DNA of 53,508 nt, taken from Escherichia coli (GTDB taxonomy: Bacteria; Pseudomonadota; Gammaproteobacteria; Enterobacterales; Enterobacteriaceae). Below the pieces are notes generated by a model, which was given only the letters and a program-made list of their open reading frames with translations, was not told where the DNA came from and did not search any database. The stretch is from assembly GCF_003334335.1 (NCBI RefSeq), contig NZ_QOWQ01000033.1, one strand, 5' to 3'. The translations under genes and the position numbers were made by a program. Below, piece by piece: positions 1-41,350 of this stretch (the first letter of the stretch is position 1; each line of letters begins with the position of its first letter).

Positions 1-257
1 GCAGCCTGATTAAGGGACATGTGCTGCTCGATCACAGCTTTCACGACCTTAATACGCAACTCTGGATCAGCACTAACGCCTTTAGGTTTGGGAATTAAAC
101 CTTTTTCTCCATGTTTTTCATAGAGGGCAACCCATGTCCTGACCTGGGTTCGGGGGACACCAAAACGTGCCGAGATGATCCTGTAACCATCATCAGTTGT
201 GAAGTAGTGATTCACGACTTCAAGGCGCTTTTCAAAAGGGTATTTTGGCTTTGACAT
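1..257 (-). CDS. insJ: IS150 transposase OrfA (InsJ), N-terminal ~85 codons; C-terminus outside window
   Basis: ATG at 255-257 (minus); translation matches the InsJ helix-turn-helix N-terminus. Confidence 0.8.
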   Translation of the reverse strand, partial: MSKPKYPFEKRLEVVNHYFTTDDGYRIISARFGVPRTQVRTWVALYEKHGEKGLIPKPKGVSADPELRIKVVKAVIEQHMSLNQA

Positions 258-304
258 ATTAGGGGCTATTCCATTTCATCGTCCAACAAAATGGGTGCAG
301 TACA
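1..304 (-). mobile_element. IS150 left end (partial; rest of element lies beyond window start)
   Basis: Minus-strand ORF 1..257 translates to the IS150 OrfA/InsJ N-terminus (MSKPKYPFEKRLEVVNHYFTTDDGYRIISARFGV...); element terminus TGTACTGCACCCATTTTGTTGGACG read on minus strand ends at 304. Recognition from memory, not a search. Confidence 0.8.
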
Positions 305-336: not shown

Positions 337-489
337 ATGCCGCAGAAATATAGATTACTTTCTTTAATAGTGATTTGTTTCACGCTTTTATTTTTCACCT
401 GGATGATAAGAGATTCACTGTGTGAATTGCATATTAAACAGGAGAGTTATGAGCTGGCGGCGTTTTTAGCCTGCAAATTGAAAGAGTAA
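337..489 (+). CDS. hokA: Hok-family type I toxin (small membrane peptide, 50 aa)
   Basis: MPQKYRLLSLIVICFTLLFFTWMIRDSLCELHIKQESYELAAFLACKLKE; ATG at 337 within ORF 295..489; one hydrophobic helix typical of Hok/Gef. Confidence 0.8.
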   Translation: MPQKYRLLSLIVICFTLLFFTWMIRDSLCELHIKQESYELAAFLACKLKE

Positions 490-8929: not shown

Positions 8930-10138
8930 ATGACACCTTCAAATTATCAGCGTACCCGCTGGCTGACACTCATCGGTACTATCATTACCCAGTTTGCGCT
9001 GGGGTCGGTTTATACCTGGAGCCTGTTTAATGGCGCGCTTTCCGCCAAGCTGGATGCGCCGGTAAGCCAGGTCGCTTTCTCTTTCGGCTTGTTAAGTCTG
9101 GGGCTGGCAATTTCGTCTTCTGTTGCGGGCAAATTACAGGAACGTTTTGGCGTTAAACGCGTCACCATGGCTTCCGGCATTTTGCTGGGATTAGGCTTCT
9201 TCCTGACAGCGCATTCTGACAACCTGATGATGCTGTGGTTAAGCGCCGGTGTGCTGGTGGGACTGGCAGATGGCGCGGGTTATCTGCTGACGCTCTCTAA
9301 CTGTGTGAAGTGGTTCCCGGAGCGTAAAGGTCTGATCTCCGCGTTCGCTATCGGTTCTTATGGTCTGGGTAGCCTGGGTTTCAAATTTATCGACACGCAG
9401 CTGCTGGAAACGGTCGGTCTGGAAAAAACCTTTGTGATTTGGGGAGCGATTGCGCTGTTGATGATTGTTTTCGGCGCAACGTTAATGAAAGACGCACCAA
9501 AACAGGAAGTGAAAACCAGCAATGGTGTGGTGGAGAAAGATTACACGCTGGCAGAGTCGATGCGTAAACCGCAGTACTGGATGTTAGCGGTAATGTTCCT
9601 GACCGCCTGCATGAGCGGCCTGTACGTGATTGGGGTAGCGAAAGATATCGCCCAAAGTCTGGCACACCTTGATGTGGTTTCCGCAGCCAATGCAGTCACT
9701 GTTATTTCCATCGCCAACCTTTCAGGTCGTCTGGTGCTGGGTATTCTGTCTGACAAAATCGCCCGTATCCGTGTTATTACCATTGGTCAGGTGATATCGC
9801 TGGTGGGTATGGCGGCCCTGCTGTTTGCACCATTGAATGCAGTGACGTTCTTTGCAGCGATTGCCTGCGTGGCATTTAACTTTGGCGGCACTATTACCGT
9901 CTTTCCGTCACTGGTCAGTGAGTTCTTTGGCCTCAATAACCTGGCGAAAAACTACGGTGTGATTTATCTCGGTTTCGGTATCGGTAGCATTTGTGGTTCG
10001 ATTATCGCCTCACTGTTTGGCGGCTTCTATGTGACCTTCTACGTGATTTTCGCCCTGCTGATTCTGTCATTGGCGCTTTCTACGACGATTCGTCAGCCAG
10101 AGCAGAAAATGTTGCGTGAGGCGCATGGCTCCCTTTAA
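8930..10138 (+). CDS. yhjX: MFS transporter YhjX (oxalate/formate antiporter-like; pyruvate-responsive)
   Basis: 12-TM MFS profile starting MTPSNYQRTRWLTLIGTIITQFALGSVYTWSLFN; ATG at 8930. Confidence 0.92.
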   Translation: MTPSNYQRTRWLTLIGTIITQFALGSVYTWSLFNGALSAKLDAPVSQVAFSFGLLSLGLAISSSVAGKLQERFGVKRVTMASGILLGLGFFLTAHSDNLMMLWLSAGVLVGLADGAGYLLTLSNCVKWFPERKGLISAFAIGSYGLGSLGFKFIDTQLLETVGLEKTFVIWGAIALLMIVFGATLMKDAPKQEVKTSNGVVEKDYTLAESMRKPQYWMLAVMFLTACMSGLYVIGVAKDIAQSLAHLDVVSAANAVTVISIANLSGRLVLGILSDKIARIRVITIGQVISLVGMAALLFAPLNAVTFFAAIACVAFNFGGTITVFPSLVSEFFGLNNLAKNYGVIYLGFGIGSICGSIIASLFGGFYVTFYVIFALLILSLALSTTIRQPEQKMLREAHGSL

Positions 10139-20875: not shown

Positions 20876-22555
20876 TTACTGCGGGTAAGGCACCCAGTCG
20901 CCGCCGTTCAGGCGAACGTACGGTTTATCCTGGTATTGAATAACTACTGCATTTGAGTTCTCGGAGACCGGTGCTGTTTGTGGCAACCCACTGGTGAGTT
21001 TTTTCCAGTCAACATTGTCTTCGGTGAAAATCTTGCCATCGAGAACGCGAACCACCAGATCGGAGATAGCCAGGAAGCTGCTCGGTTGTTCGATGACAAT
21101 CGGTGCCCCCTGATGCGGTGCCTTCATGCCGAAGAATTTCACCCCAACGGGGACGTCGGTGATAGACGGGCTAGGGATATCACGTAGGCCAGATACCTGC
21201 ATTCTGTCGCCCTTCAGCGCGCCGCCGTGTTCCGGCACCACGACCACCATCACTTTACGACCCGATTTCTCAAGTTCAGTAAAGAAGGCGTCCAGTTCAT
21301 CAAAGAATTTCTGCGCCCGCGCTTTGTAATCCGCTGTTTTGCTGACCCCCGGATAATGGTTGCCGTCATGCAGTGGAAGCGTGTTGTAGAACGTGGCACT
21401 ACGGCTGTTTTTATCTTTTTCGGTAACGTCCAGCCAGCGGTTAAGCACAGCGGTATCGTCATAAACCGGCGAACCATCAAAGCCCAGCAAAATAACCGGC
21501 AGATTTGTTTGATCCATCAATTCGCTCTGCATGCCGCCATTTTCGCGAACTTCTTTCAAAAAACCGCCGAACTGGCCGTTATGTCCCATCATCAGGTGCT
21601 GGGTAAAGCCCAGTTTCGAAAGGTTATCAAACAGATAGCAGTCGTTATTTGCCGGTTGATACAGATTAGTGTGCGAAGTCTGCCCGCAGCTGGCGCGCAG
21701 TAAACGGATCGCCGCCGGGCCACTGTAGGAGGTGGCGGAGTTAAAGTTCTTGAACTCAATATCGAAATGCGACCACAGTGGATGCGACATCAACCCGGCG
21801 GCTTCTATATCCGACCAGGAAAGCGAACAGATGTTAATCACCAGTAGTTCAAATGGCTGAGCATCAGCGGGCAGCGAAGACGGGAAGGTCGATTTACGTT
21901 TCGCCTCCGCGTTATAGAAATTATTCAGCCAGGCGTTAAGGTTCGCCGTTGTTGGCGGTGCAGTTTGTGCGGGCATATCACCCACTACCGGTGCGCCACC
22001 CGTCGCCGCAACGGTTGCCGCTGCGTTACCACCCGTCGTTGTTACAGTGGTCGTCGGTTGTCCGGCTGGCCACAAGGAGAAACTTGGTCCCGCCAGGGTA
22101 AGTACGTTCAGCCATAGCAGTATGGCAACCACAAAAACGGTAATGCGAATCCATTGTGACAGGAATAACCAGGCCACTAATAAAACAAAAATGGCCCCAA
22201 TCATCTGCCAGTTAATAAAGCGTGTGACAAGGTCGATTAAATAATCGGTACTGAACCCCGCCACCTGCGAACCCTGGCTCATTATGCTTTCCGGGCCAGG
22301 CAACCAGGTGTCATGCCAGAACAAAGCAAAGCCGATCGGCAGGGCAATCCAGTGGCGCAAGCGATGCAGGCTGTAGCGCGGAAGGGGCATCAGCAGAAAC
22401 GCGGCAAACACCAAATTGAGGAGCGGATGGAAGTTAAGATATCCCGCCCACAACAGGCCGAACTTAACCAGAAAATAGAAGTTCCAGCCGGAAAGGCCGC
22501 GCCAGTATTGCCAGAGGGAAGAAGGCATGGCGGTATTTTGCGTAAATTGAGTCAT
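20876..22555 (-). CDS. bcsG: cellulose phosphoethanolamine transferase BcsG
   Basis: 559 aa, N-terminal TM helices plus alkaline-phosphatase-superfamily periplasmic domain; ATGA overlap with bcsF. Confidence 0.93.
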
Positions 22556-22743
22556 TTTTTGGTTGCCCTGGCTTTTTCCGTGCGGCGTAACGTCCCGGCC
22601 GGTTTAACATAACGAGGTTTAGCAAAGAACAAACGTAAGGTGTCGCGAATGCGTCGCAAAGAGTGCCGCGCCAGATAGCCCAGCGGGAAAAATATCAGTG
22701 CGCAAACGACAATAATTTCAATGATATCGCTGATGGTCATCAT
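22552..22743 (-). CDS. bcsF: cellulose biosynthesis small membrane protein BcsF (63 aa)
   Basis: [31 protein letters not shown]...; single TM helix; overlaps bcsE and bcsG by 4 bp each. Confidence 0.9.
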
Positions 22744-24311
22744 GATGAGCGCTCCACAGCATCATCTAACAGTCGCATGGGTTCTGGTATTCGTCGCCAG
22801 TGGCGACCATCGTGCTCGGCATTGATGACCGGTTTAGAACTTTGCGTTAAAGGCAGCGGCATGCCCCATTGTTCTGGGGCAAGCAAGCGCATCTGCACCA
22901 GCTCGGCACTGATTTGATCATCTTCAAACCAGACCATACGGTTTGAGAAAATGTCGCCAGTAGGCAATGGGAAAATATGATTCAACGCGGTATCCAGATC
23001 GTTAATCCGACAGAATGAGAGAAACAGCACCAGCCGATTACCGCCAATGGTCATGATATCGCCGGTACGGTTAGGGCGACACAGCGTCAGGGCTTGTTCA
23101 ACGCGGATACCCGGTACCGGACGTAGGGCAACCAGAACGCCTTTACCGTGGGCAGGTAATAGAGGGTTATTCATCATGTTGTTGACGGCATTACAGAACA
23201 CATCCCACTTCTGGAAACCACGCAGTTTGAGCGGCTGGGTCATTGACAGCAAGGTAGTGATATCTTCCGGCACATAGCGACTAAACTTCTGCCCTTGCAC
23301 GCTTTCGATCATCGTCAGACAACGGGAGAGTGGCGCATTCCACGGAATAACCATATTTGCACCGCAGGCCAATAACAAACGTTCATCGGTGGCGCGCAGG
23401 CTAGCGGTATTTTCCCGCACGAGGATTTTCATCGCACTACCGCGCTGGCGACGCAGGGTATGAATGCTGCGGGCCAGTGGCTCGATTTGCGCATTTTGCT
23501 GTAAAGAAAAGACCACCGTCGCCGCCTGAGCGGTACGGGCTTCATTGAACAGGACTTCGTTATTGTTGAACAGTTGCCAGTGTTCCGATAGCGGCGGCGC
23601 ACCTTCCAGTACAGCAACATTACTCAGAATGCGTTTTTCGTCGCTGCGTGGTTGGATCTCCGCCTCTTCGCTTTGAACTAATGTCCAGATACCATTTTGT
23701 TGCTGAACGCTAAGCTGCTGACGGGCGCTGACCCCTTTTTCGTTGCACCAGAAGGCAATATCCAGCAAATGTTGGTCACCCTGAAAACGCAAACTGGCAA
23801 GACCAAAAAGTGAACGGTATTCCTCAAGCAACAATGAAAATTGTTTATCGTTATTATTTCCGGGATTAATTACCAAAAGCGAACAATGGTTTAACCTGCT
23901 CCATTTATTCATTTTATCCAACCATGAGCGAAGCCGCTCGGCAGGAATGTTTTGCCATGCGTTATTTGCGCAAACAAGAATAAAAAGGTAATTATGGGGA
24001 TCAATAGAACACTGCAAATCACGGGTCAAATAGTATAGACCTTTTTCATGATTTAGCATTGAAAATAATTTTATTTTTTCCGGCCCTTGAGAATCATCTA
24101 ATTGAAAGATTTTCGCCGGATCGCTGTCCATGCTAATGACCGCGACGTGTGCGGTTTCAGCCTGGGATGCAATTGTTTGATTCGCCAGACTGATAGCATC
24201 TTCATGGCGATCGACGTTAAACCACCAGACGCCACCTGCTGGCATATGTCGCAGCTCATCCCATAATGATGAGATACCGATAGAGAATACAGGGTCCACA
24301 ATGTCCCTCAT
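22740..24311 (-). CDS. bcsE: cellulose biosynthesis c-di-GMP-binding protein BcsE (GIL domain)
   Basis: 523 aa; RxGD motif (RTGD) seen in ...[15 protein letters not shown].... Confidence 0.93.
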
Positions 24312-24583
24312 GTCACCATTTTGTCTGATTATCAGTTTACTAGCGAAAGCTAAGAAATAAACCTACCATTGAAATTAAAACTTATCAGATTTAGCATGTG
24401 AATCAATTTAGAAGGTCACAAGACGTGTGATTTTAGTCTTTTCGTTTTTAACTTTTTCTGTTGCGTAACGGAAAGTCAAAAAGTGAGCAAATTCCCGTCT
24501 CGCCGTAAACAATAAACCGGCGAAATGCTCACGGTTAGAATTGTCTCATGAACGGTACGGTTATTTCATAGGGATCAAGCAAA

Positions 24584-24772
24584 ATGAATAACAATGAACC
24601 AGATACTCTGCCTGATCCCGCGATAGGCTATATCTTCCAGAATGATATTGTGGCGTTAAAGCAGGCATTTTCACTGCCTGATATTGATTATGCCGATATT
24701 TCCCAACGCGAACAGTTGGCCGCGGCATTAAAACGCTGGCCGTTGCTGGCAGAGTTTGCGCAACAAAAGTAG
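24584..24772 (+). CDS. bcsR: cellulose biosynthesis protein BcsR (62 aa)
   Basis: MNNNEPDTLPDPAIGYIFQNDIVALKQAFSLPDIDYADISQREQLAAALKRWPLLAEFAQQK; divergent from bcsE. Confidence 0.9.
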   Translation: MNNNEPDTLPDPAIGYIFQNDIVALKQAFSLPDIDYADISQREQLAAALKRWPLLAEFAQQK

Positions 24773-24783
24773 GGGATTGGTGA

Positions 24784-25536
24784 ATGGCCGTACTGGGATT
24801 GCAGGGGGTGCGGGGAGGCGTGGGGACAACAACCATCACCGCCGCATTAGCCTGGTCATTACAAATGTTGGGAGAAAATGTCCTGGTGGTCGATGCCTGC
24901 CCGGACAACTTGTTGCGCCTGTCATTTAATGTTGATTTTACCCACCGTCAGGGCTGGGCCAGAGCGATGCTGGATGGCCAGGACTGGCGTGACGCTGGGT
25001 TGCGCTACACCTCGCAGCTCGATTTGCTGCCTTTTGGTCAGTTATCCATTGAAGAACAAGAAAATCCACAGCACTGGCAAACCCGGCTGAGCGATATTTG
25101 CTCCGGCTTACAGCAACTAAAAGCCAGCGGGCGTTACCAGTGGATTTTAATCGACTTACCGCGTGATGCCTCGCAGATAACCCACCAGCTGCTGAGTTTG
25201 TGCGATCACTCGCTGGCAATCGTCAATGTGGATGCCAACTGCCATATCCGACTGCATCAGCAAGCGCTGCCGGATGGCGCACATATTTTGATTAATGACT
25301 TCCGTATTGGCAGTCAGGTTCAGGACGATATTTACCAGCTTTGGTTGCAAAGCCAGCGCCGATTACTGCCGATGCTCATTCATCGTGATGAAGCGATGGC
25401 TGAATGCCTGGCGGCTAAGCAACCAGTAGGTGAATATCGCAGTGATGCGCTGGCGGCTGAAGAGATACTGACGCTGGCGAACTGGTGCCTGTTGAACTAC
25501 TCCGGGCTGAAAACGCCAGTCGGGAGTGCATCATGA
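24784..25536 (+). CDS. bcsQ: cellulose biosynthesis protein BcsQ (MinD/ParA-like), uninterrupted 250-codon frame
   Basis: ATG at 24784, 12 bp after the bcsR stop; codon 6 (24799-24801) is TTG; P-loop-like GVRGGVGTTT; ATGA overlap with bcsA. Confidence 0.9.
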   Translation: MAVLGLQGVRGGVGTTTITAALAWSLQMLGENVLVVDACPDNLLRLSFNVDFTHRQGWARAMLDGQDWRDAGLRYTSQLDLLPFGQLSIEEQENPQHWQTRLSDICSGLQQLKASGRYQWILIDLPRDASQITHQLLSLCDHSLAIVNVDANCHIRLHQQALPDGAHILINDFRIGSQVQDDIYQLWLQSQRRLLPMLIHRDEAMAECLAAKQPVGEYRSDALAAEEILTLANWCLLNYSGLKTPVGSAS

Positions 25537-28151
25537 GTATCCTGACCCGGTGGTTGCTTATCCCGCCGGTCAACGCGCGGCTTATCGGGCGTTATCGCGA
25601 TTATCGTCGTCACGGTGCGTCGGCTTTCAGCGCGACGCTCGGCTGTTTCTGGATGATCCTGGCCTGGATTTTTATTCCGCTGGAGCACCCGCGCTGGCAG
25701 CGTATTCGCGCAGAACATAAAAACCTGTATCCGCATATCAACGCCTCGCGTCCGCGTCCGCTGGACCCGGTCCGTTATCTCATTCAAACATGCTGGTTAT
25801 TGATCGGTGCATCGCGCAAAGAAACGCCGAAACCGCGCAGGCGGGCATTTTCAGGTCTGCAAAATATTCGTGGACGTTACCATCAATGGATGAACGAGCT
25901 GCCTGAGCGCGTTAGCCATAAAACACAGCATCTGGATGAGAAAAAAGAGCTCGGTCATTTGAGTGCCGGGGCGCGGCGGTTGATCCTCGGTATCATCGTC
26001 ACCTTCTCGCTGATTCTGGCGTTAATCTGCGTTACTCAGCCGTTTAACCCGCTGGCGCAGTTTATCTTCCTGATGCTGCTGTGGGGGGTAGCGCTGATCG
26101 TACGGCGGATGCCGGGGCGCTTCTCGGCGCTAATGTTGATTGTGCTGTCGCTGACCGTTTCTTGCCGTTATATCTGGTGGCGTTACACCTCTACGCTGAA
26201 CTGGGACGATCCGGTCAGCCTGGTGTGCGGGCTTATTCTGCTCTTCGCTGAAACGTACGCGTGGATTGTGCTGGTGCTCGGCTACTTCCAGGTAGTATGG
26301 CCGCTGAATCGTCAGCCGGTGCCATTGCCGAAAGATATGTCGCTGTGGCCGTCGGTGGATATCTTTGTCCCGACTTACAACGAAGATCTCAACGTGGTGA
26401 AAAATACCATTTACGCCTCGCTGGGTATCGACTGGCCGAAAGATAAGCTGAATATCTGGATCCTTGATGACGGCGGCAGGGAAGAGTTTCGCCAGTTTGC
26501 GCAAAACGTGGGGGTGAAATATATCGCCCGCACCACTCATGAACATGCGAAAGCAGGCAACATCAACAATGCGCTGAAATATGCCAAAGGCGAGTTCGTG
26601 TCGATTTTCGACTGCGACCACGTACCAACGCGATCGTTCTTGCAAATGACCATGGGCTGGTTCCTGAAAGAAAAACAGCTGGCGATGATGCAGACGCCGC
26701 ACCACTTCTTCTCACCGGACCCGTTTGAACGCAACCTGGGGCGTTTCCGTAAAACGCCGAACGAAGGCACGCTGTTCTATGGTCTGGTGCAGGATGGCAA
26801 CGATATGTGGGACGCCACTTTCTTCTGCGGTTCCTGTGCGGTGATTCGTCGTAAGCCGCTGGATGAAATTGGCGGCATTGCTGTCGAAACCGTGACTGAA
26901 GATGCGCATACTTCTCTGCGGTTGCACCGTCGTGGCTATACCTCCGCGTATATGCGTATTCCGCAGGCGGCGGGGCTGGCGACCGAAAGTCTGTCGGCGC
27001 ATATCGGTCAGCGTATTCGCTGGGCGCGCGGGATGGTACAAATCTTCCGTCTCGATAACCCGCTCACCGGTAAAGGGCTGAAGTTTGCTCAGCGGCTATG
27101 TTACGTCAACGCCATGTTCCACTTCTTGTCGGGCATTCCACGGCTGATCTTCCTGACTGCGCCGCTGGCGTTCCTGCTGCTTCATGCCTACATCATCTAT
27201 GCGCCAGCGTTGATGATCGCCCTATTCGTGCTGCCGCATATGATCCATGCCAGCCTGACCAACTCCAAGATCCAGGGCAAATATCGCCACTCTTTCTGGA
27301 GTGAAATCTACGAAACGGTGCTGGCGTGGTATATCGCACCACCGACGCTGGTGGCGCTGATTAACCCGCACAAAGGCAAATTTAACGTCACCGCCAAAGG
27401 TGGACTGGTGGAAGAAGAGTACGTCGACTGGGTGATCTCGCGGCCCTACATCTTCCTTGTCCTGCTCAACCTGGTGGGCGTTGCGGTAGGCATCTGGCGC
27501 TACTTCTATGGCCCGCCAACCGAGATGCTCACCGTGGTCGTCAGTATGGTGTGGGTGTTCTACAACCTGATTGTTCTTGGCGGCGCAGTTGCGGTATCGG
27601 TAGAAAGCAAACAGGTACGCCGATCGCACCGCGTGGAGATGACGATGCCCGCGGCAATTGCCCGCGAAGATGGTCACCTCTTCTCGTGTACCGTTCAGGA
27701 TTTCTCCGACGGTGGTTTGGGGATCAAGATCAACGGTCAGGCGCAGATTCTGGAAGGGCAGAAAGTGAATCTGTTGCTTAAACGCGGTCAGCAGGAATAC
27801 GTCTTCCCGACCCAGGTGGCGCGCGTGATGGGTAATGAAGTTGGGCTGAAATTAATGCCGCTCACCACCCAGCAACATATCGATTTTGTGCAGTGTACGT
27901 TTGCCCGTGCGGATACATGGGCGCTCTGGCAGGACAGCTACCCGGAAGATAAGCCGCTGGAAAGTCTGCTGGATATTCTGAAGCTCGGCTTCCGTGGCTA
28001 CCGCCATCTGGCGGAGTTTGCGCCTTCTTCGGTGAAGGGCATATTCCGTGTGCTGACTTCTCTGGTTTCCTGGGTTGTATCGTTTATTCCGCGCCGCCCG
28101 GAGCGGAGCGAAACGGCACAACCATCGGATCAGGCTTTGGCTCAACAATGA
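25533..28151 (+). CDS. bcsA: cellulose synthase catalytic subunit BcsA (GT2 + PilZ)
   Basis: GT2 motifs (DDG, TED in VTEDAHTS, QRIRW), C-terminal PilZ motifs RRSHR and DFSDGG; ATG at 25533. Confidence 0.96.
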   Translation: MSILTRWLLIPPVNARLIGRYRDYRRHGASAFSATLGCFWMILAWIFIPLEHPRWQRIRAEHKNLYPHINASRPRPLDPVRYLIQTCWLLIGASRKETPKPRRRAFSGLQNIRGRYHQWMNELPERVSHKTQHLDEKKELGHLSAGARRLILGIIVTFSLILALICVTQPFNPLAQFIFLMLLWGVALIVRRMPGRFSALMLIVLSLTVSCRYIWWRYTSTLNWDDPVSLVCGLILLFAETYAWIVLVLGYFQVVWPLNRQPVPLPKDMSLWPSVDIFVPTYNEDLNVVKNTIYASLGIDWPKDKLNIWILDDGGREEFRQFAQNVGVKYIARTTHEHAKAGNINNALKYAKGEFVSIFDCDHVPTRSFLQMTMGWFLKEKQLAMMQTPHHFFSPDPFERNLGRFRKTPNEGTLFYGLVQDGNDMWDATFFCGSCAVIRRKPLDEIGGIAVETVTEDAHTSLRLHRRGYTSAYMRIPQAAGLATESLSAHIGQRIRWARGMVQIFRLDNPLTGKGLKFAQRLCYVNAMFHFLSGIPRLIFLTAPLAFLLLHAYIIYAPALMIALFVLPHMIHASLTNSKIQGKYRHSFWSEIYETVLAWYIAPPTLVALINPHKGKFNVTAKGGLVEEEYVDWVISRPYIFLVLLNLVGVAVGIWRYFYGPPTEMLTVVVSMVWVFYNLIVLGGAVAVSVESKQVRRSHRVEMTMPAAIAREDGHLFSCTVQDFSDGGLGIKINGQAQILEGQKVNLLLKRGQQEYVFPTQVARVMGNEVGLKLMPLTTQQHIDFVQCTFARADTWALWQDSYPEDKPLESLLDILKLGFRGYRHLAEFAPSSVKGIFRVLTSLVSWVVSFIPRRPERSETAQPSDQALAQQ

Positions 28152-28161: not shown

Positions 28162-30501
28162 ATGAAAAGAAAACTATTCTGGATTTGTGCAGTGGCTATG
28201 GGGATGAGTGCGTTCCCCTCTTTCATGACGCAGGCGACGCCAGCAACGCAACCACTGATCAATGCTGAGCCAGCTGTAGCCGCCCAGACGGAACAAAATC
28301 CGCAGGTGGGGCAAGTGATGCCGGGCGTGCAGGGCGCTGATGCGCCAGTCGTGGCGCAGAACGGTCCTTCGCGTGATGTGAAGCTGACCTTTGCGCAAAT
28401 TGCACCGCCGCCGGGCAGCATGGTGCTACGTGGCATTAACCCGAACGGCAGCATTGAGTTTGGTATGCGCAGCGATGAAGTGGTGACGAAGGCGATGCTC
28501 AACCTCGAATACACCCCATCGCCATCGTTACTGCCTGTCCAGTCGCAGTTAAAGGTTTATCTCAATGATGAACTGATGGGCGTGCTGCCAGTGACCAAAG
28601 AACAGTTGGGTAAAAAAACGCTGGCGCAAATGCCCATTAACCCACTGTTTATTACCGACTTCAACCGTGTACGGCTGGAGTTTGTCGGCCATTATCAGGA
28701 CGTGTGCGAAAACCCGGCCAGCACCACGCTTTGGCTGGATGTTGGGCGGAGCAGTGGACTGGATCTGACCTATCAGACCCTGAATGTGAAGAATGACCTG
28801 TCACACTTCCCGGTGCCATTCTTTGACCCGCGCGATAACCGCACCAACACCTTGCCGATGGTCTTTGCGGGTGCGCCGGATGTTGGGCTGCAACAAGCCT
28901 CTGCCATTGTCGCCTCGTGGTTTGGTTCGCGTTCTGGCTGGCGTGGGCAGAACTTCCCGGTACTCTATAACCAACTGCCGGATCGCAATGCCATTGTCTT
29001 TGCAACCAACGACAAACGGCCGGACTTCCTGCGCGATCATCCGGCGGTAAAAGCCCCGGTGATTGAGATGATTAACCATCCGCAGAATCCTTACGTCAAA
29101 CTGCTGGTGGTGTTTGGTCGTGACGACAAAGACCTGTTGCAGGCAGCGAAAGGTATCGCTCAGGGTAACATTCTGTTCCGTGGTGAAAGCGTGGTAGTGA
29201 ATGAAGTGAAACCGCTGCTACCGCGTAAGCCGTACGATGCGCCGAACTGGGTACGTACCGATCGTCCGGTCACATTTGGCGAACTGAAAACCTATGAAGA
29301 ACAGTTACAATCCAGCGGTCTTGAGCCAGCAGCGATTAACGTTTCGCTAAACCTGCCGCCGGATCTCTACCTGATGCGCAGTATCGGCATTGATATGGAT
29401 ATTAATTACCGCTACACCATGCCGCCGGTGAAAGACAGTTCGCGGATGGATATCAGCCTGAATAACCAGTTCCTGCAATCCTTCAACCTGAGCAGCAAAC
29501 AGGAGGCGAACCGCCTGCTGCTGCGGATTCCGGTATTACAAGGTTTGCTGGATGGCAAAACAGATGTCTCTATTCCGGCGCTGAAACTGGGCGCGACCAA
29601 CCAGCTGCGCTTCGACTTTGAGTATATGAACCCGATGCCGGGCGGTTCGGTGGATAACTGTATTACCTTCCAGCCGGTGCAGAATCATGTGGTGATTGGT
29701 GACGACTCCACCATCGACTTCTCGAAGTATTACCACTTCATCCCGATGCCGGATCTACGCGCCTTTGCTAACGCGGGCTTCCCATTCAGCCGGATGGCGG
29801 ATCTGTCGCAAACCATCACCGTGATGCCGAAAGCGCCTAACGAAGCACAGATGGAAACGTTGCTGAATACTGTTGGTTTTATCGGCGCACAGACGGGCTT
29901 CCCGGCGATTAATCTGACGGTGACCGATGATGGCAGCACCATTCAGGGCAAAGATGCCGACATCATGATCATCGGTGGTATCCCGGACAAACTGAAAGAC
30001 GATAAGCAGATCGACCTATTGGTGCAGGCGACCGAAAGCTGGGTGAAAACACCGATGCGCCAGACCCCGTTCCCCGGCATTGTGCCGGACGAGAGCGATC
30101 GCGCGGCAGAAACCCGGTCAACGCTGACCTCTTCCGGTGCGATGGCGGCGGTGATTGGCTTCCAGTCGCCGTATAACGACCAGCGCAGCGTGATTGCGTT
30201 GTTGGCAGATAGCCCACGCGGTTATGAAATGCTTAACGATGCGGTGAACGATAGCGGCAAACGCGCCACCATGTTCGGTTCGGTCGCGGTGATCCGCGAG
30301 TCCGGTATCAACAGCCTACGTGTTGGCGACGTTTATTACGTAGGTCATCTGCCGTGGTTCGAGCGCGTGTGGTATGCGCTGGCAAACCATCCGATTCTGC
30401 TGGCGGTGCTGGCGGCTATCAGTGTGATATTGCTGGCATGGGTACTGTGGCGTCTGCTGCGAATTATTAGTCGTCGTCGTCTTAACCCGGATAACGAGTA
30501 A
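28162..30501 (+). CDS. bcsB: cellulose synthase periplasmic subunit BcsB
   Basis: 779 aa starting MKRKLFWICAVAMGMSAFPSF (signal peptide) with C-terminal TM anchor; the ORF track's 28075 start overlaps the bcsA end. Confidence 0.95.
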   Translation: MKRKLFWICAVAMGMSAFPSFMTQATPATQPLINAEPAVAAQTEQNPQVGQVMPGVQGADAPVVAQNGPSRDVKLTFAQIAPPPGSMVLRGINPNGSIEFGMRSDEVVTKAMLNLEYTPSPSLLPVQSQLKVYLNDELMGVLPVTKEQLGKKTLAQMPINPLFITDFNRVRLEFVGHYQDVCENPASTTLWLDVGRSSGLDLTYQTLNVKNDLSHFPVPFFDPRDNRTNTLPMVFAGAPDVGLQQASAIVASWFGSRSGWRGQNFPVLYNQLPDRNAIVFATNDKRPDFLRDHPAVKAPVIEMINHPQNPYVKLLVVFGRDDKDLLQAAKGIAQGNILFRGESVVVNEVKPLLPRKPYDAPNWVRTDRPVTFGELKTYEEQLQSSGLEPAAINVSLNLPPDLYLMRSIGIDMDINYRYTMPPVKDSSRMDISLNNQFLQSFNLSSKQEANRLLLRIPVLQGLLDGKTDVSIPALKLGATNQLRFDFEYMNPMPGGSVDNCITFQPVQNHVVIGDDSTIDFSKYYHFIPMPDLRAFANAGFPFSRMADLSQTITVMPKAPNEAQMETLLNTVGFIGAQTGFPAINLTVTDDGSTIQGKDADIMIIGGIPDKLKDDKQIDLLVQATESWVKTPMRQTPFPGIVPDESDRAAETRSTLTSSGAMAAVIGFQSPYNDQRSVIALLADSPRGYEMLNDAVNDSGKRATMFGSVAVIRESGINSLRVGDVYYVGHLPWFERVWYALANHPILLAVLAAISVILLAWVLWRLLRIISRRRLNPDNE

Positions 30502-30507: not shown

Positions 30508-31614
30508 ATGAATGTGTTGCGTAGTGGAATCGTGACGATGCTGCTGCTGGCTGCCTTTAGTGTTCAGGCAGCCTGTACCTGGCCTGCCTGGGAGCAGTTT
30601 AAAAAGGATTACATCAGTCAGGAAGGGCGCGTCATCGACCCCAGCGACGCGCGCAAAATCACCACCTCCGAAGGGCAAAGTTACGGCATGTTCTCTGCCC
30701 TGGCGGCTAACGACCGTGCAGCTTTCGATAATATTCTCGACTGGACGCAGAACAATCTCGCTCAGGGTTCTTTAAAAGAACGTTTGCCCGCCTGGCTGTG
30801 GGGCAAGAAAGAGAACAGTAAGTGGGAAGTGCTGGACAGCAATTCGGCCTCCGATGGTGATGTCTGGATGGCCTGGTCGTTGCTGGAGGCGGGGCGTTTG
30901 TGGAAAGAGCAGCGTTATACCGACATCGGCAGCGCGTTGCTAAAACGTATCGCGCGGGAGGAAGTGGTGACGGTGCCTGGGCTGGGTTCCATGTTGTTAC
31001 CGGGCAAAGTGGGTTTTGCTGAGGATAACAGCTGGCGTTTTAACCCCAGCTACCTGCCGCCGACGCTGGCGCAGTATTTCACCCGCTTTGGCGCGCCGTG
31101 GACCACGCTGCGCGAAACCAATCAACGTTTATTGCTGGAAACCGCCCCGAAAGGTTTTTCGCCAGACTGGGTGCGCTATGAGAAAGACAAAGGCTGGCAG
31201 CTAAAAGCCGAAAAAACATTGATCAGCAGCTACGACGCTATCCGCGTTTACATGTGGGTAGGCATGATGCCTGACAGCGATCCGCAAAAAGCGCGGATGC
31301 TCAACCGGTTTAAACCGATGGCGACATTCACTGAGAAAAACGGTTATCCGCCGGAAAAAGTGGATGTGGCTACGGGGAAAGCGCAGGGTAAAGGACCAGT
31401 CGGTTTTTCTGCCGCCATGCTGCCCTTTTTACAAAACCGCGATGCGCAGGCCGTTCAGCGCCAGCGCGTGGCCGATAACTTTCCCGGCAGCGATGCCTAT
31501 TACAACTATGTGCTGACCCTGTTTGGACAAGGCTGGGATCAACACCGTTTCCGCTTCTCGACAAAAGGTGAGTTATTACCTGACTGGGGCCAGGAATGCG
31601 CAAATTCACACTAA
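30508..31614 (+). CDS. bcsZ: endo-1,4-beta-glucanase BcsZ (glycoside hydrolase family 8)
   Basis: 368 aa with signal peptide ([21 protein letters not shown]) and GH8-like segment [12 protein letters not shown]. Confidence 0.95.
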
Positions 31615-34600
31615 ACATATTCACGCTTTCCCTCGGTCTGGCCGTCATGCCGATGGTCGAGGCAGCACCAACCGCTCAGCAACAGTTGCTGGAGCAAGTT
31701 CGGTTAGGCGAAGCGACCCATCGTGAAGATCTGGTGCAACAGTCGTTATATCGGCTGGAACTTATTGATCCGAATAACCCGGACGTCGTTGCCGCCCGTT
31801 TCCGTTCTTTGTTACGTCAGGGCGATATTGATGGCGCGCAAAAACAGCTCGATCGGCTGTCGCAGTTAGCGCCGAGTTCAAATGCGTATAAATCGTCGCG
31901 GACTACGATGCTACTTTCCACGCCGGATGGTCGTCAGGCACTGCAACAGGCACGATTGCAGGCGACGACCGGTCATGCAGAAGAAGCTGTGGCGAGTTAC
32001 AACAAACTGTTCAACGGTGCGCCGCCGGAAGGTGACATTGCTGTCGAGTACTGGAGTACGGTGGCGAAAATTCCGGCTCGCCGTGGCGAAGCGATTAATC
32101 AGTTAAAACGCATCAATGCGGATGCACCGGGCAATACGGGCCTGCAAAACAATCTGGCGCTATTGCTGTTTAGTAGCGATCGCCGTGACGAAGGTTTTGC
32201 CGTCCTGGAACAGATGGCAAAATCGAACGCCGGGCGCGAAGGGGCCTCTAAAATCTGGTACGGGCAGATTAAAGACATGCCCGTCAGTGATGCCAGTGTG
32301 TCGGCGCTGAAAAAATATCTCTCGATCTTTAGTGATGGCGATAGCGTGGCGGCTGCGCAATCGCAACTGGCAGAACAGCAAAAACAGCTGGCCGATCCTG
32401 CTTTCCGCGCTCGTGCGCAAGGTTTAGCGGCGGTGGACTCTGGTATGGCGGGTAAAGCCATTCCCGAACTACAACAGGCGGTGCGGGCGAACCCGAAAGA
32501 CAGTGAAGCTCTGGGGGCGCTGGGCCAGGCGTATTCTCAGAAAGGCGATCGCGCCAATGCAGTGGCGAATCTGGAAAAAGCCCTCGCACTGGACCCGCAC
32601 AGCAGCAACAACGACAAATGGAACAGTCTGCTGAAAGTAAACCGCTACTGGCTGGCGATCCAGCAGGGCGATGCTGCGCTGAAAGCCAATAATCCTGACC
32701 GGGCAGAACGCCTGTTCCAGCAGGCGCGTAATGTCGATAACACCGACAGTTATGCCGTGCTGGGGCTGGGCGATGTGGCGATGGCGCGAAAAGATTATCC
32801 CGCCGCCGAACGTTATTATCAGCAGACCTTGCGTATGGACAGCGGCAACACTAACGCCGTGCGCGGGCTGGCAAATATTTACCGCCAGCAATCGCCAGAA
32901 AAAGCTGAAGCGTTTATCGCCTCGCTCTCTGCCAGTCAGCGGCGTAGCATTGATGATATCGAACGCAGCCTGCAAAACGACCGTCTGGCACAGCAGGCAG
33001 AGGCACTGGAAAACCAGGGCAAATGGGCGCAGGCGGCAGCACTTCAGCGGCAACGACTGGCGCTGGACCCCGGCAGCGTATGGATTACTTACCGACTTTC
33101 GCAGGATCTCTGGCAGGCCGGACAACGCAGCCAGGCCGATACGTTAATGCGCAATCTGGCGCAGCAGAAGTCGAACGACCCGGAGCAGGTTTACGCTTAC
33201 GGGCTGTACCTCTCTGGTCATGACCAGGACAGAGCGGCGCTGGCGCATATCAACAGCCTGCCGCGTGCGCAGTGGAACAGCAATATTCAGGAGCTGGTTA
33301 ATCGACTGCAAAGCGATCAGGTGCTGGAAACCGCTAACCGCCTGCGAGAAAGCGGCAAAGAGGCAGAAGCGGAAGCGATGCTGCGCCAGCAACCACCTTC
33401 CACGCGTATTGACCTCACGCTGGCTGACTGGGCGCAACAACGACGTGATTACACCGCCGCCCGCGCTGCATATCAGAATGTCCTGACGCGGGAGCCAGCT
33501 AACGCCGACGCCATTCTTGGTCTGACGGAAGTGGATATTGCTGCCGGTGACAAAGCGGCGGCACGTAGCCAGCTGGCGAAACTGCCCGCTACCGATAACG
33601 CCTCGCTGAACACACAGCGGCGCGTGGCGCTGGCACAGGCGCAGCTTGGCGATACCGCAGCAGCGCAGCGGACGTTTAATAAGTTGATCCCGCAGGCAAA
33701 ATCTCAGCCACCGTCGATGGAAAGCGCGATGGTGCTGCGTGATGGTGCGAAGTTTGAAGCGCAGGCGGGCGATCCAACGCAGGCGCTGGAAACCTACAAA
33801 GACGCCATGGTCGCATCCGGTGTGACTACGACGCGTCCGCAGGATAACGACACCTTTACCCGACTGACCCGTAACGACGAGAAAGATGACTGGCTGAAAC
33901 GTGGCGTGCGCAGCGATGCGGCGGACCTCTATCGCCAGCAGGATCTTAACGTCACCCTTGAGCACGATTACTGGGGTTCGAGCGGCACCGGTGGTTACTC
34001 CGATCTGAAAGCGCACACTACCATGTTGCAGGTGGATGCGCCGTATTCTGACGGGCGGATGTTCTTTCGCAGTGATTTCGTCAATATGAACGTCGGCAGT
34101 TTCTCCACTAATGCCGATGGCAAATGGGATGACAACTGGGGCACCTGTACATTACAGGACTGTAGCGGCAACCGCAGCCAGTCGGATTCCGGTGCCAGCG
34201 TGGCGGTCGGCTGGCGAAATGACGTCTGGAGCTGGGATATCGGTACCACGCCGATGGGCTTCAACGTGGTGGATGTGGTCGGCGGCATCAGTTACAGCGA
34301 TGATATCGGGCCGCTGGGTTACACCGTTAACGCCCACCGTCGGCCCATCTCCAGTTCTTTGCTGGCCTTTGGTGGGCAAAAAGACTCCCCGAGCAATACC
34401 GGGAAAAAATGGGGTGGCGTACGTGCCGACGGTGTGGGGCTAAGTCTGAGCTACGATAAAGGTGAAGCAAACGGCGTCTGGGCATCGCTTAGTGGCGACC
34501 AGTTAACCGGTAAAAATGTCGAAGATAACTGGCGCGTGCGCTGGATGACGGGCTATTACTATAAGGTCATTAACCAGAACAATCGCCGCGTCACAATCGG

Positions 34601-35069
34601 CCTGAACAACATGATCTGGCATTACGACAAAGATCTGAGTGGCTACTCACTCGGTCAGGGCGGTTACTACAGTCCGCAGGAATACCTGTCGTTTGCCATA
34701 CCGGTGATGTGGCGGGAGCGCACGGAAAACTGGTCGTGGGAGCTGGGTGCGTCTGGCTCGTGGTCGCATTCACGCACCAAAACCATGCCGCGTTATCCGC
34801 TGATGAATCTGATCCCGACCGACTGGCAGGAAGAAGCTGCGCGGCAATCCAACGATGGCGGCAGCAGTCAGGGCTTCGGCTACACGGCGCGGGCATTACT
34901 TGAACGACGTGTTACTTCCAACTGGTTTGTTGGCACGGCAATTGATATCCAGCAGGCGAAAGATTACGCACCCAGCCATTTCCTGCTCTACGTACGTTAT
35001 TCCGCCGCCGGATGGCAGGGTGACATGGATTTACCGCCGCAGCCGCTGATACCTTACGCCGACTGGTAA
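31596..35069 (+). CDS. bcsC: cellulose synthase outer-membrane subunit BcsC (TPR repeats + C-terminal beta-barrel)
   Basis: 1157 aa; signal peptide, long Ala/Leu/Gln-rich TPR region, Gly/Tyr/Trp-rich C-terminal barrel; start overlaps the bcsZ 3' end by 19 bp. Confidence 0.95.
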
Positions 35070-35150
35070 GTTTTCAGATAGCGCCTCTCTTAATGCCGCT
35101 GCGATCGGGTATACTCGGGCGGCAATCTGGGATTTCCGGGGGGAGACAAT

Positions 35151-37139
35151 TTGCGCGTAAGTCGCTCGTTAACAATCAAGCAGATGGCAATGGTGGCAGC
35201 CGTTGTCCTGGTGTTCGTTTTTATTTTTTGCACCGTTTTGCTGTTCCATCTGGTCCAGCAGAATCGCTATAACACGGCTACGCAACTGGAAAGCATTGCT
35301 CGCTCTGTCCGCGAACCCTTATCTTCAGCTATTTTGAAAGGCGATATTCCCGAAGCGGAAGCTATTCTTGCCAGCATTAAACCGGCAGGCGTGGTCAGCC
35401 GTGCCGATGTAGTGCTGCCTAACCAGTTCCAGGCGCTGCGTAAAAGTTTTATTCCAGAGCGCCCGGTGCCGGTAATGGTTACTCGCCTGTTTGAGCTACC
35501 GGTTCAAATCTCGCTGGGCGTTTACTCGCTCGAACGTCCGGCAAACCCGCAGCCAATTGCCTATCTGGTACTACAGGCGGATTCCTTCCGTATGTATAAG
35601 TTCGTGATGAGCACCCTCTCAACGTTAGTGACCATTTACTTACTTTTGTCGCTTATCCTGACCGTCGCCATCAGCTGGTGCATTAACCGCCTGATTTTGC
35701 ATCCGTTACGCAATATTGCTCGCGAACTTAACGCCATCCCAGCCAAGGAGCTTGTTGGTCACCAACTGGCATTACCGCGTCTGCATCAGGACGATGAAAT
35801 CGGTATGTTGGTGCGCAGTTACAACCTCAACCAGCAATTGCTGCAGCGCCATTATGAAGAACAGAACGAAAATGCGATGCGCTTCCCGGTGTCGGATTTG
35901 CCGAACAAAGCCTTGCTGATGGAGATGCTGGAGCAGGTTGTCGCGCGTAAACAAACCACCGCGCTGATGATCATCACCTGTGAAACCCTGCGTGATACTG
36001 CGGGCGTGCTGAAAGAGGCGCAACGAGAAATTCTGCTGCTGACGCTGGTGGAAAAACTCAAATCGGTACTGTCGCCACGTATGATCCTCGCGCAGATTAG
36101 CGGTTATGACTTTGCTGTCATTGCCAACGGTGTACAGGAACCGTGGCACGCAATCACCTTAGGTCAGCAAGTGCTCACTATCATGAGCGAGCGCCTGCCG
36201 ATTGAACGTATTCAACTCCGTCCGCACTGTAGCATTGGCGTGGCGATGTTCTACGGCGATCTCACCGCCGAACAGCTTTACAGTCGCGCTATTTCTGCGG
36301 CATTTACCGCTCGCCATAAAGGCAAGAATCAGATTCAGTTCTTTGATCCGCAGCAGATGGAAGCCGCCCAGAAGCGGTTGACGGAAGAGAGCGATATCCT
36401 TAATGCACTGGAAAATCATCAGTTTGCTATTTGGTTACAGCCACAGGTCGAGATGACCAGCGGTAAACTGGTCAGTGCGGAAGTGTTACTGCGTATCCAG
36501 CAACCGGATGGCAGTTGGGACCTGCCGGATGGCTTAATCGATCGCATTGAGTGCTGTGGGCTGATGGTTACCGTCGGTCACTGGGTGCTGGAAGAGTCCT
36601 GTCGATTGCTTGCAGCCTGGCAAGAGCGCGGCATTATGCTGCCCTTGTCGGTAAACCTCTCTGCGCTGCAACTGATGCACCCGAATATGGTGGCGGATAT
36701 GCTGGAACTGTTAACCCGCTATCGCATTCAGCCGGGAACACTGATTCTGGAAGTGACAGAAAGCCGACGTATTGACGACCCTCATGCTGCGGTGGCAATC
36801 CTCCGTCCGCTGCGCAATGCCGGAGTTCGGGTGGCGCTGGATGATTTCGGCATGGGCTACGCAGGGCTGCGTCAGCTGCAGCATATGAAATCGTTGCCAA
36901 TCGACGTACTGAAAATCGACAAAATGTTTGTTGAAGGCTTGCCGGGAGATAGCAGCATGATTGCTGCAATTATCATGCTGGCGCAGAGCCTGAACTTACA
37001 AATGATTGCCGAAGGCGTGGAGACTGAAGCACAACGCGACTGGCTGGCAAAAGCGGGCGTTGGTATTGCCCAGGGCTTCCTTTTTGCTCGCCCACTCCCT
37101 ATTGAAATCTTCGAAGAGAGTTACCTGGAAGAAAAGTAG
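35151..37139 (+). CDS. pdeK: c-di-GMP phosphodiesterase PdeK (membrane sensor, degenerate GGDEF + EAL)
   Basis: N-terminal TM/periplasmic region, degenerate GGDEF position (SGYDF), EAL domain (EVLLR...[10 protein letters not shown]); the listed start is TTG, alternative ATG at 35184. Confidence 0.9.
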
Positions 37140-37285
37140 CTACCCCAAACTGATTACAAAACTTTAAAAAGTGCTGGTTTGTGCGAGCCAGCTCAAACTT
37201 TTTAACCTTTTTGTTTCAATTATGATCCAGGTACATTTCTGTGATGTTGTCTGGGTGTTATTTTAAGGCCGCAGGTACCCCATAA

Positions 37286-38608
<1,323 letters not shown>

Positions 38609-38622
38609 TCTCATCACTTATG

Positions 38623-38654
38623 CCCGCACTCCCTTCCCCGAGTGCGGGTGTTTG
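38623..38654 (+). terminator. rho-independent terminator of dctA
   Basis: CCCGCACTC-ccttcccc-GAGTGCGGG followed by TGTTTG. Confidence 0.7.
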
Positions 38655-38828
38655 CGCATAATTGACCCCTGTGCCTGAACTTACCACCTGGGTGAGTTCA
38701 GGTTTATTTCACTTCTTCCGTGACATTTTCATGTTCTTGCGGTCTAACACGAAGTGTTTTTAACGTCATTTAGACTGACCGACAACGGGCAGTTTTTTTA
38801 TTACCAGGATAGTTGATCAGGGGTTCAC

Positions 38829-40325
38829 ATGCAGGGCACAAAAATTCGACTTTTAGCGGGCGGTTTGCTGATGATGGCCACTGCTGGCTATGTGCAGGCA
38901 GATGCGCTCCAGCCTGATCCAGCATGGCAACAGGGGACGCTTTCCAACGGTTTACAGTGGCAAGTGCTGACCACCCCCCAGCGTCCCAGCGATCGTGTTG
39001 AAATTCGCCTGCTGGTTAATACCGGTTCGCTCGCCGAAAGTACACAACAGAGCGGTTACAGTCACGCCATCCCTCGTATTGCGCTAACGCAAAGCGGTGG
39101 CCTTGACGCAGCACAGGCGCGTTCATTGTGGCAGCAGGGGATCGACCCTAAACGCCCGATGCCGCCGGTAATTGTCTCTTATGACACCACGCTGTTTAAT
39201 CTGAGTTTGCCCAATAACCGTAACGATTTGCTGAAAGAAGCGCTCTCTTATCTGGCAAATGCCACTGGCAAATTGACCATCACACCAGAAACCATCAACC
39301 ACGCGCTGCAAAGTCAGGACATGGTGGCAACCTGGCCTGCCGATACTAAAGAGGGCTGGTGGCGCTATCGTCTGAAAGGGTCAACCTTGTTAGGTCACGA
39401 TCCTGCCGATCCGCTGAAACAACCCGTTGAAGCGGAAAAAATTAAAGATTTCTATCAGAAATGGTACACCCCGGATGCAATGACGCTACTGGTGGTGGGA
39501 AACGTGGATGCGCGCTCGGTTGTCGACCAAATAAACAAAACGTTTGGCGAACTGAAAGGCAAACGTGAAACGCCAGCTCCGGTGCCGACGCTTTCTCCGC
39601 TGCGTGCGGAAGCGGTGAGTATTATGACTGACGCGGTGCGTCAGGACCGGTTATCTATCATGTGGGATACGCCGTGGCAGCCGATTCGTGAATCAGCCGC
39701 ACTGCTGCGCTACTGGCGTGCGGACCTGGCCCGCGAGGCGCTGTTCTGGCATGTTCAGCAAGCGTTAAGTGCCAGTAACAGCAAAGACATCGGTCTTGGA
39801 TTTGACTGCCGTGTGCTGTATCTGCGTGCGCAGTGTGCCATCAACATCGAATCACCAAACGACAAGCTGAACAGCAACCTTAATCTGGTGGCGCGTGAAC
39901 TGGCGAAGGTTCGCGATAAAGGTCTGCCGGAAGAAGAGTTCAATGCGTTAGTGGCGCAAAAGAAACTGGAGCTGCAGAAACTGTTTGCCGCCTATGCACG
40001 AGCTGATACCGATATTCTGATGGGTCAGCGGATGCGTTCGTTGCAAAATCAGGTTGTCGATATCGCGCCGGAGCAATATCAGAAACTGCGGCAGGATTTC
40101 CTTAATAGCCTGACGGTAGAGATGTTAAATCAGGATCTGCGTCAACAGTTGTCGAATGATATGGCGTTAATACTGCTGCAGCCGAAAGGCGAGCCGGAAT
40201 TTAACATGAAAGCGTTGCAGGCGGTCTGGGATCAAATCATGGCCCCATCTACCGCCGCTGCGACCACCTCTGTCGCCACGGATGACGTACATCCTGAAGT
40301 GACGGATATTCCACCTGCACAGTAA
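38829..40325 (+). CDS. yhjJ: periplasmic M16-like (pitrilysin family) putative zinc peptidase YhjJ
   Basis: 498 aa with signal peptide; recognised as YhjJ. Confidence 0.88.
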   Translation: MQGTKIRLLAGGLLMMATAGYVQADALQPDPAWQQGTLSNGLQWQVLTTPQRPSDRVEIRLLVNTGSLAESTQQSGYSHAIPRIALTQSGGLDAAQARSLWQQGIDPKRPMPPVIVSYDTTLFNLSLPNNRNDLLKEALSYLANATGKLTITPETINHALQSQDMVATWPADTKEGWWRYRLKGSTLLGHDPADPLKQPVEAEKIKDFYQKWYTPDAMTLLVVGNVDARSVVDQINKTFGELKGKRETPAPVPTLSPLRAEAVSIMTDAVRQDRLSIMWDTPWQPIRESAALLRYWRADLAREALFWHVQQALSASNSKDIGLGFDCRVLYLRAQCAINIESPNDKLNSNLNLVARELAKVRDKGLPEEEFNALVAQKKLELQKLFAAYARADTDILMGQRMRSLQNQVVDIAPEQYQKLRQDFLNSLTVEMLNQDLRQQLSNDMALILLQPKGEPEFNMKALQAVWDQIMAPSTAAATTSVATDDVHPEVTDIPPAQ

Positions 40326-40420
40326 TGCCTGATGGTGATGAGTTAGCACAACCATCAGGTATTTATGGATGAGCTGGATAGAGGGGTAACACTTTATCCA
40401 GCCTTTTGCATATGCTGCGT

Positions 40421-41350
40421 TTACGCTGGCATCGCCTCACGCGGGATAATCGCGCCGCGATACTGAATAACGGTACTTGCGGTCAGGTGCCCACGTTTCG
40501 CCGCGTCTTCCGCGCTGCCGCCTGTCAGACGTACCGCCAGATAACCGGCACTGAAAGAGTCGCCAGCTGCGGTGGTATCGATCACTTTTTCTTTCGGCAG
40601 TTTCACCGCCGGAACATCCACTAACCCTTCGCCAGCAATGGACACCAGGCAAGAATCCGCCCCGCGTTTCACCACCACTTCTTTCACGCCCGCGTTATGG
40701 GTGCGCGCAATGACGTCTTCCACCGGCTGTTGACCCCACAGCGCGTCTTCGTCGTCCAGCGTCAGGAAGGCGATATCCGTGCATTCCAGCATTTGTTGGT
40801 ACACCTGCTGTGTCTCTTCTTTGCTGGCCCACAGGCGCGGACGATAGTTATTGTCGAAAATCACTTTTCCGCCGTTGGCGCGGCATTCGCGCAGCAGGGA
40901 AAGCAGCTTTTCGCGGCTGGTCGGGCTTAAGATCGCCAGGCTAATCCCGCTCAGGTAGAGATAATCGAAATTCGCCAGCTCTTCGCAAATCGCCGCAGAC
41001 TGCTCACTCTCCAGCCAGAATTTGGCGGCGGCTTCGTTCCGCCAGTAGTAGAACGTACGCTCGCCGGTGCTGTCGGTTTCAATGTAGTAAAGGCCCGGCA
41101 GACGGTTTTCCATCCGTTGGGTCAGGGAAGTATCAACGTTCTCGCCGTGCCAGGCGTCCAGCATCTGCTGGCTAAAACTGTCCGTTCCCAGCGCCGTTAC
41201 GTAATGAACGGTTAATGCCGCAGGATCGACCTGACGGGCGATATAGACGGAAGTGTTCAGGGTATCGCCGCCGAAACCGCGCTTAACGTCCGCGCCTTTC
41301 TCGGAAAGCTCAATCATGCATTCGCCAATCACGGCAATCTTTTTGGACAT
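40421..41350 (-). CDS. kdgK: 2-dehydro-3-deoxygluconokinase KdgK (PfkB family, 309 aa)
   Basis: MSKKIAVIGECMIELSEKGADVKRGFGGDTLNTSVY...; PfkB motif DTTAAGDSF; ATG at 41350, the long upstream extension to 41698 rejected. Confidence 0.93.
   Translation of the reverse strand: MSKKIAVIGECMIELSEKGADVKRGFGGDTLNTSVYIARQVDPAALTVHYVTALGTDSFSQQMLDAWHGENVDTSLTQRMENRLPGLYYIETDSTGERTFYYWRNEAAAKFWLESEQSAAICEELANFDYLYLSGISLAILSPTSREKLLSLLRECRANGGKVIFDNNYRPRLWASKEETQQVYQQMLECTDIAFLTLDDEDALWGQQPVEDVIARTHNAGVKEVVVKRGADSCLVSIAGEGLVDVPAVKLPKEKVIDTTAAGDSFSAGYLAVRLTGGSAEDAAKRGHLTASTVIQYRGAIIPREAMPA

Follow-up and report, generated by a model that had tools for sequence, protein, structure and literature searches.

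Cellulose synthesis in Escherichia coli reportedly depends on BcsQ, which Le Quere and Ghigo 2009 are said to have found essential, and Serra et al. 2013 reportedly described AR3110 as a 'de-domesticated' W3110 in which bcsQ has been repaired and which is cellulose-positive. That repair is cited in the passages of PMC7397504 and PMC5014196 that deal with the strain. The lesion in K-12 is a stop at codon 6 of bcsQ, given as 'TTG/TAG (17 T>A)' in PMC5944007. The stop SNP, the repair to TTG in AR3110 and the polarity on the synthase genes are treated in PMC7397504, PMC5014196, PMC4238805 and PMC5944007. Among these, PMC5944007 and PMC4238805 report the K-12 stop as polar on bcsA and bcsB and the strain as cellulose-negative; the latter is a review from the same group as Serra et al. 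2013, used here for its passage on the polarity.

We compared these systems with a 53,508-nt stretch of E. coli DNA (contig NZ_QOWQ01000033.1 of assembly GCF_003334335.1), called the window below. In reverse complement it matches MG1655 NC_000913.3 from 3,667,261 to 3,720,936, with which it is collinear, and it runs from within IS150 through hokA, cspA, bisC, eptB, proK, dppABCDF, both bcs operons, pdeK, dctA, pdeH and treF into the gadA-ccp spacer. Over the 53.5 kb the window and MG1655 are separated by 13 SNPs and one 168-bp indel (identity > 99.97%). The other genomes compared were W3110 and the isolates 300709 (human stool), FORC 064 (cucumber), Z1323CEC0013 (chicken) and E. coli C. E. coli C is far more divergent, with 189 differences in the aligned part, and the haplotype argument is therefore built on 300709, FORC 064 and Z1323CEC0013. 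The features discussed are collected in Table 1.

Table 1. Positions of features in the window
Feature	Position	Strand	Basis or remark
IS150 left end; window starts inside insJ; abuts hokA at the junction of K-12	1..304	-	Sequence comparison
hokA toxin ORF beside the IS150 end	337..489	+	Annotated hokA in MG1655 and natural isolates
cspA thermoregulator 5' UTR	621-1048	-	Rfam, above gathering score
Site of the 168-bp length difference, 3' of tRNA-Pro proK; short form in window	12303..12410	.	Long-form RefSeq records annotate RtT sRNA
ES036 (CssrF) sRNA, 3' of dppA	14730-14772	-	Rfam, above gathering score
rdlD antitoxin RNA of the ldrD/rdlD pair beside bcsG	20568-20633	-	Rfam, above gathering score
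bcsEFG, divergent operon, all intact	20876..24311	-	bcsE 22740-24311, bcsF 22552-22743, bcsG 20876-22555
bcsR (yhjR), first gene of bcsRQABZC, 62 aa	24584..24772	+	NCBIfam NF040717 BcsR, 75.2 bits; same place in MG1655 and natural isolates
bcsQ CDS, 250 codons + TGA, full-length wild-type allele	24784..25536	+	ORF list, translation, HMM, PDB match
bcsQ codon 6, TTG (Leu)	24799..24801	+	TAG in K-12; T at window 24800 vs A
bcsA, cellulose synthase catalytic subunit, 872 aa	25533..28151	+	ATG overlaps bcsQ stop
bcsB, 779 aa; natural T165/N184/R224 and rare T408I (29384T)	28162..30501	+	
bcsZ, endoglucanase, 368 aa, intact	30508..31614	+	
bcsC, outer-membrane channel, 1157 aa, intact	31596..35069	+	

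The bcsQ frame, which lies between bcsR and bcsA in the bcsRQABZC operon, opens by direct reading with ATG GCC GTA CTG GGA TTG CAG GGG GTG CGG from 24784, and its translation through 25536 gives 250 residues and a single stop, at the end. Sequence, translation and ORF list agree on the uninterrupted frame of 250 codons with TTG at codon 6 that a preliminary description of the window had given. The overlap of the bcsQ stop with the bcsA start, also in that description, can be read directly: the TGA at 25534-25536 shares the ATGA of 25533-25536 with the bcsA ATG at 25533-25535. A GGGAG Shine-Dalgarno-like motif stands at 25522-25526, six bases 5' of that ATG, and the same 4-nt overlap is present in MG1655 (bcsA ends at 3695236 and bcsQ starts at 3695233).

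The product scores 542.9 bits against the NCBIfam equivalog NF007460 BcsQ (cut-off 399), aligned over 1-250 of 250, and 297.7 bits against TIGR03371 (cut-off 157.85); Pfam PF06564 is recorded for a product identical to it (our locus record L011). It equals the crystallised E. coli BcsQ 6YBU at 248 of 250 residues, and its residues 1-17, MAVLGLQGVRGGVGTTT, are the same in the crystallised protein. The P-loop GGVGTTT takes up residues 11-17 of these, after an intact first strand, and codon 6 is upstream of it. The DNA of the gene is identical to the natural-isolate bcsQ annotated as WP_000279528.1. On these matches the ORF is without doubt a true BcsQ, a member of the MinD/ParA-like SIMIBI ATPase family, and not a chance ORF. 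From its 99% identity to the characterised protein, it would be expected to dimerise in an ATP-dependent manner, to bind BcsR and BcsE and to be needed in cellulose secretion.

Base-by-base comparison places the K-12 difference at window 24800, where T (TTG) stands against A (TAG) in MG1655 NC_000913.3 (genome position 3695969); W3110 shares the A of MG1655. The preliminary description had given TAG as codon 6 of K-12 laboratory strains and had allowed that the reference might carry TTG or have its stop at another codon; the alignment to both K-12 genomes shows that TAG at codon 6 was right. The distribution of the two alleles was assessed with two 55-mers centred on 24800, so designed that every 28-base megablast seed spans the variable base. 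Once a local check had confirmed that each matched its own allele only, both were run on 5426 complete E. coli genomes, of which 349 matched the TAG 55-mer. When 60 of these rows were sampled evenly, all 60 were K-12 laboratory derivatives or had K-12-like size or the O16:H48 serotype; the sampled carriers include MG1655, BW25113, DH5alpha, DH1, C600, J53, HB101, MC4100, TG1 and XL1-Blue. The TTG 55-mer matched in at least 4899 genomes (about 90%). TTG is the normal state of the species and TAG is a marker of the K-12 lineage.

The annotation of the TAG allele varies. In MG1655 bcsQ (b3534) is a pseudogene (25234-25986 of locus record L001), and in RefSeq W3110 the same allele is a CDS (27455-28183 of L010), a 'BcsQ' of 242 aa that restarts at GTG codon 9. 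Such a putative W3110 protein would be without the residues that precede the P-loop. The search tables list the K-12 matches as plain bcsQ with no pseudogene flag, and under that naming the defect could escape annotation-based screens. The K-12 allele at 28713 was found in 357 of the 5426 genomes, against 349 for the TAG 55-mer; the eight K-12-like genomes without the exact TAG context may be repaired, deleted or further mutated there.

The codon 6 base belongs to a wider haplotype. At seven of the 13 SNPs (12822, 19169, 24800, 28655, 28713, 28831 and 33254) the window agrees with 300709, FORC 064 and Z1323CEC0013, and K-12 alone differs; of the K-12-private alleles other than that of codon 6 (12822G, 19169C, 28655G, 28713A, 28831A and 33254T) none is in the window, which has the natural allele at all six. 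At the remaining six SNPs (10315, 24234, 29384, 30199, 32756 and 53042) the window differs both from K-12 and from the three natural isolates, the Z1323CEC0013 comparison stopping short of 53042. Two of these window-private alleles, 24234A and 29384T, recur in the natural NCBI drafts GCA_014417825.1 and GCA_043522535.1, from which the window differs at only three sites in about 15-22 kb. Megablast searches with longer queries, of 24 kb and 19.5 kb, gave near-perfect hits and none better. W3110 equals MG1655 at every site compared, and in the part compared it differs from the window at codon 6, at 11 further SNPs and by the 168-bp indel. In the flanks, 1-10314 and 33255-53041, the window is identical to K-12; the natural isolates are equally identical apart from private SNPs of their own, so that the flanks carry no information on lineage.

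The 168-bp segment falls between the proK tRNA (12245-12318) and dppA. It is present in MG1655, W3110, FORC 064 and Z1323CEC0013 and absent from the window and from 300709; the difference is a presence/absence polymorphism that is seen among natural isolates too. The indel was also considered as a tandem array, and Tandem Repeats Finder found no array in the window copy. Rfam gives only tRNA-Pro and naRNA4 at this site, the latter at 12415-12494 on the minus strand. The other Rfam elements of Table 1 (cspA UTR, rdlD and ES036) are all at the positions expected from K-12.

Taken by its variants, the window very probably holds an ordinary wild-type bcs locus from a natural phylogroup A lineage, very closely related to K-12 but distinct from it, where 'natural phylogroup A relative' denotes similarity to the named isolates. 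The first explanation offered in the preliminary description, that the source is not a standard K-12, is upheld by the absence of all seven K-12-private alleles.

Three other origins were weighed. The best of them is a K-12 hybrid in which at least 10315-53042 of the window (at least 43 kb), and maybe all of it, was replaced from a natural isolate by conjugation or transduction. Hybrids of K-12 with wild strains do exist in laboratories, HB101 is among the TAG carriers, and the identity of the two flanks to K-12 is what such a strain would show; the same flanks, however, are equally identical in natural isolates and are therefore not evidence of K-12. Against a hybrid, moreover, none of the seven K-12-private alleles is in the window, window-private SNPs lie near both of its ends (10315 and 53042), two window-private alleles are also found in natural drafts, and natural genomes with the IS150-hokA junction (about 1300, see below) far outnumber such constructs. 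We regard this origin as unlikely.

The preliminary description also offered a repaired derivative as the source. AR3110, in which the TAG of W3110 has become TTG, would be such a strain, and so would a P1 transductant that received the repaired allele. This origin accounts for codon 6, which is exactly the TTG of AR3110, and the IS150-hokA junction and the identity above 99.97% are common to the window and K-12. It fails on the rest of the haplotype, since W3110 differs from the window at the 11 further SNPs and the 168-bp indel, including the three K-12 substitutions in BcsB. The co-transducible kan cassette of the Hengge laboratory is in the dppF-yhjV gap, and in the window that gap (18906-18934) is collinear with MG1655 and has neither insert nor scar. 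AR3110 would have six of the seven K-12-private alleles and the window has none, which excludes that strain; repaired K-12 derivatives as a class are a very improbable source, and the suggestion of a repaired derivative is set aside. Least credible of all is a K-12 source in which T at 24800 arose by faulty sequencing or assembly, as a difference of one base might suggest, because twelve other SNPs and the indel also separate the window from K-12, seven of the 13 SNPs, 24800 included, match the natural-isolate allele, and most genomes (at least 4899) have TTG.

The IS150-hokA arrangement had been taken in the preliminary description as an association with K-12, at odds with an intact bcsQ. We searched the 5426 complete genomes with window 1-608, a query split evenly over the junction, and counted a genome when the query was covered in one place. 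The junction was found in 1651 genomes (~30%), many of the matches being 100% identical and in a single piece. The carriers include isolates from human stool, chicken, pig, goose, dog, river water and cucumber, as well as E. coli C and AS19-RrmA-. Since at most about 350 of them can be K-12, roughly 1300 non-K-12 genomes have the insertion. The junction is indeed present in K-12, but it is not diagnostic: the insertion beside hokA is old, goes back to the ancestry of a large clade, and is neither a K-12 signature nor a laboratory artefact. Because it is common outside K-12 it coexists naturally with an intact bcsQ, and the two markers do not conflict; intact bcsQ with IS150-hokA is the usual combination. 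The locus that the IS150 end abuts is the mokA/hokA type I toxin locus.

All nine bcs ORFs of the window are as long as expected and are free of internal stops, and their order is that of the MG1655 annotation. The complete bcsRQABZC operon with the divergent bcsEFG is the E. coli-type (type II) cluster for phosphoethanolamine cellulose. The window and K-12 are the same throughout bcsA and throughout the bcsE-bcsR intergenic region. The changes in yhjV, in bcsE (24234), at bcsB codon 680 and in bcsC (32756 and 33254) are synonymous. In BcsB, K-12 has S165/K184/S224, and the window and the natural isolates have T165/N184/R224. At bcsB codon 408 (window 29384) the window has ATC (Ile), against ACC (Thr) in all compared genomes, and all E. 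coli BcsB chains in the PDB have T408. A 55-mer specific for I408 had no match in the 5426 complete genomes, and the exact BcsB protein of the window, with I408, is encoded on eight NCBI draft contigs.

The K-12-private SNPs are clustered, with seven in the ~20 kb from 12822 to 33254 of the window and none in the other 33 kb, and three of them (28655, 28713 and 28831) are transversions that fall in a 177-bp part of bcsB and change the protein. The cluster could reflect relaxed selection or a clustered mutational event in an operon that the bcsQ stop had already silenced, and T408I could alter the cellulose synthase of the window; taken together, these two suggestions are unlikely.

The consequence of TTG for the operon can be outlined. 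In the window, bcsQ can be translated from the ATG at 24784 through TTG up to its own stop, in the overlap with the bcsA start; ribosomes would cover the full bcsQ message and couple into bcsA, and bcsRQABZC would be expressible. In K-12, termination at codon 6 would leave ~735 nt untranslated, with loss of BcsQ and presumably lowered expression of bcsA and bcsB. The coupling and polarity proposed here follow what is established on translational coupling and on Rho-dependent polarity, together with the statements of the papers cited above. Either the loss of BcsQ or the polarity would suffice alone. The preliminary description had stated that TAG is polar on bcsA and abolishes cellulose, and this is borne out by the four papers cited above for the stop.

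With all nine bcs genes intact, the locus is, as far as its sequence tells, genetically competent for cellulose. An intact bcsQ is necessary for cellulose production and not sufficient. Production also requires CsgD, DgcC and RpoS, whose genes lie outside the window. BL21 and ETEC H10407 are calcofluor-negative despite complete bcs genes (PMC5944007), and H10407 matches the window exactly over 24500-25600 (bcsR, bcsQ and the bcsA start). Given calcofluor-negative strains with intact bcs genes, and the rare T408I in BcsB, production is not inferable from the intact locus. Of the earlier statement that the locus is cellulose-proficient, the nine intact genes stand, but proficiency goes too far, as H10407 illustrates.

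For strain typing, K-12 can be recognised reliably in this region by its bcsQ codon 6 allele and its three BcsB substitutions, but not by the IS150-hokA junction. Users of the window sequence should take it to come from a natural relative of K-12 whose cellulose locus is genetically complete, and should not read cellulose production from an intact bcsQ absent a phenotype. Earlier work has described the TTG allele, the exception in K-12, its experimental repair and the inactivation of the hokA locus by IS150; the codon 6 finding is correct but ordinary and advances no open question.

Among known systems, K-12 bcsQ (b3534) has the same place as the bcsQ of the window, the same flanking genes and the same IS150-hokA junction ~24 kb off, and differs within the gene by one base. 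K-12, unlike the window, has TAG at codon 6, is cellulose-negative and carries BcsB S165/K184/S224 and four other private SNPs. AR3110, like the window, has an intact operon and reads TTG at codon 6; otherwise it is W3110 by construction, and the window is not. The structurally characterised proteins come from E. coli 1094 (6YBU, 6YG8), a strain that groups with ATCC 8739 and HS and not with K-12 (PMC5944007). Its BcsQ differs from that of the window at residues 172 (D vs N) and 249 (A vs K), and its BcsB at 408 (I in the window vs T) and 736 (V vs L), with T165/N184/R224 in common.

E. coli C (NZ_CP020543.1; 18241-23506 of locus record L009) has the bcsQ of the window, but the annotation gives its bcsE an internal stop and its bcsA a frameshift. 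Its dppA (8729-10329 of L009) is annotated as frameshifted too, and a divergence of ~1% between its dpp region and the window points to a recombined patch. A full match is the wild-type bcsQ (WP_000279528.1) of 300709, FORC 064, E. coli C and H10407, whose DNA from 24500 to 25600 is 100% identical to the window. These strains have the same 250-aa product with no difference within bcsQ, the same ATGA overlap and the same bcsRQABZC/bcsEFG layout; elsewhere the window is set apart from them by its own rare BcsB T408I and by synonymous changes in bcsE, bcsB and bcsC.
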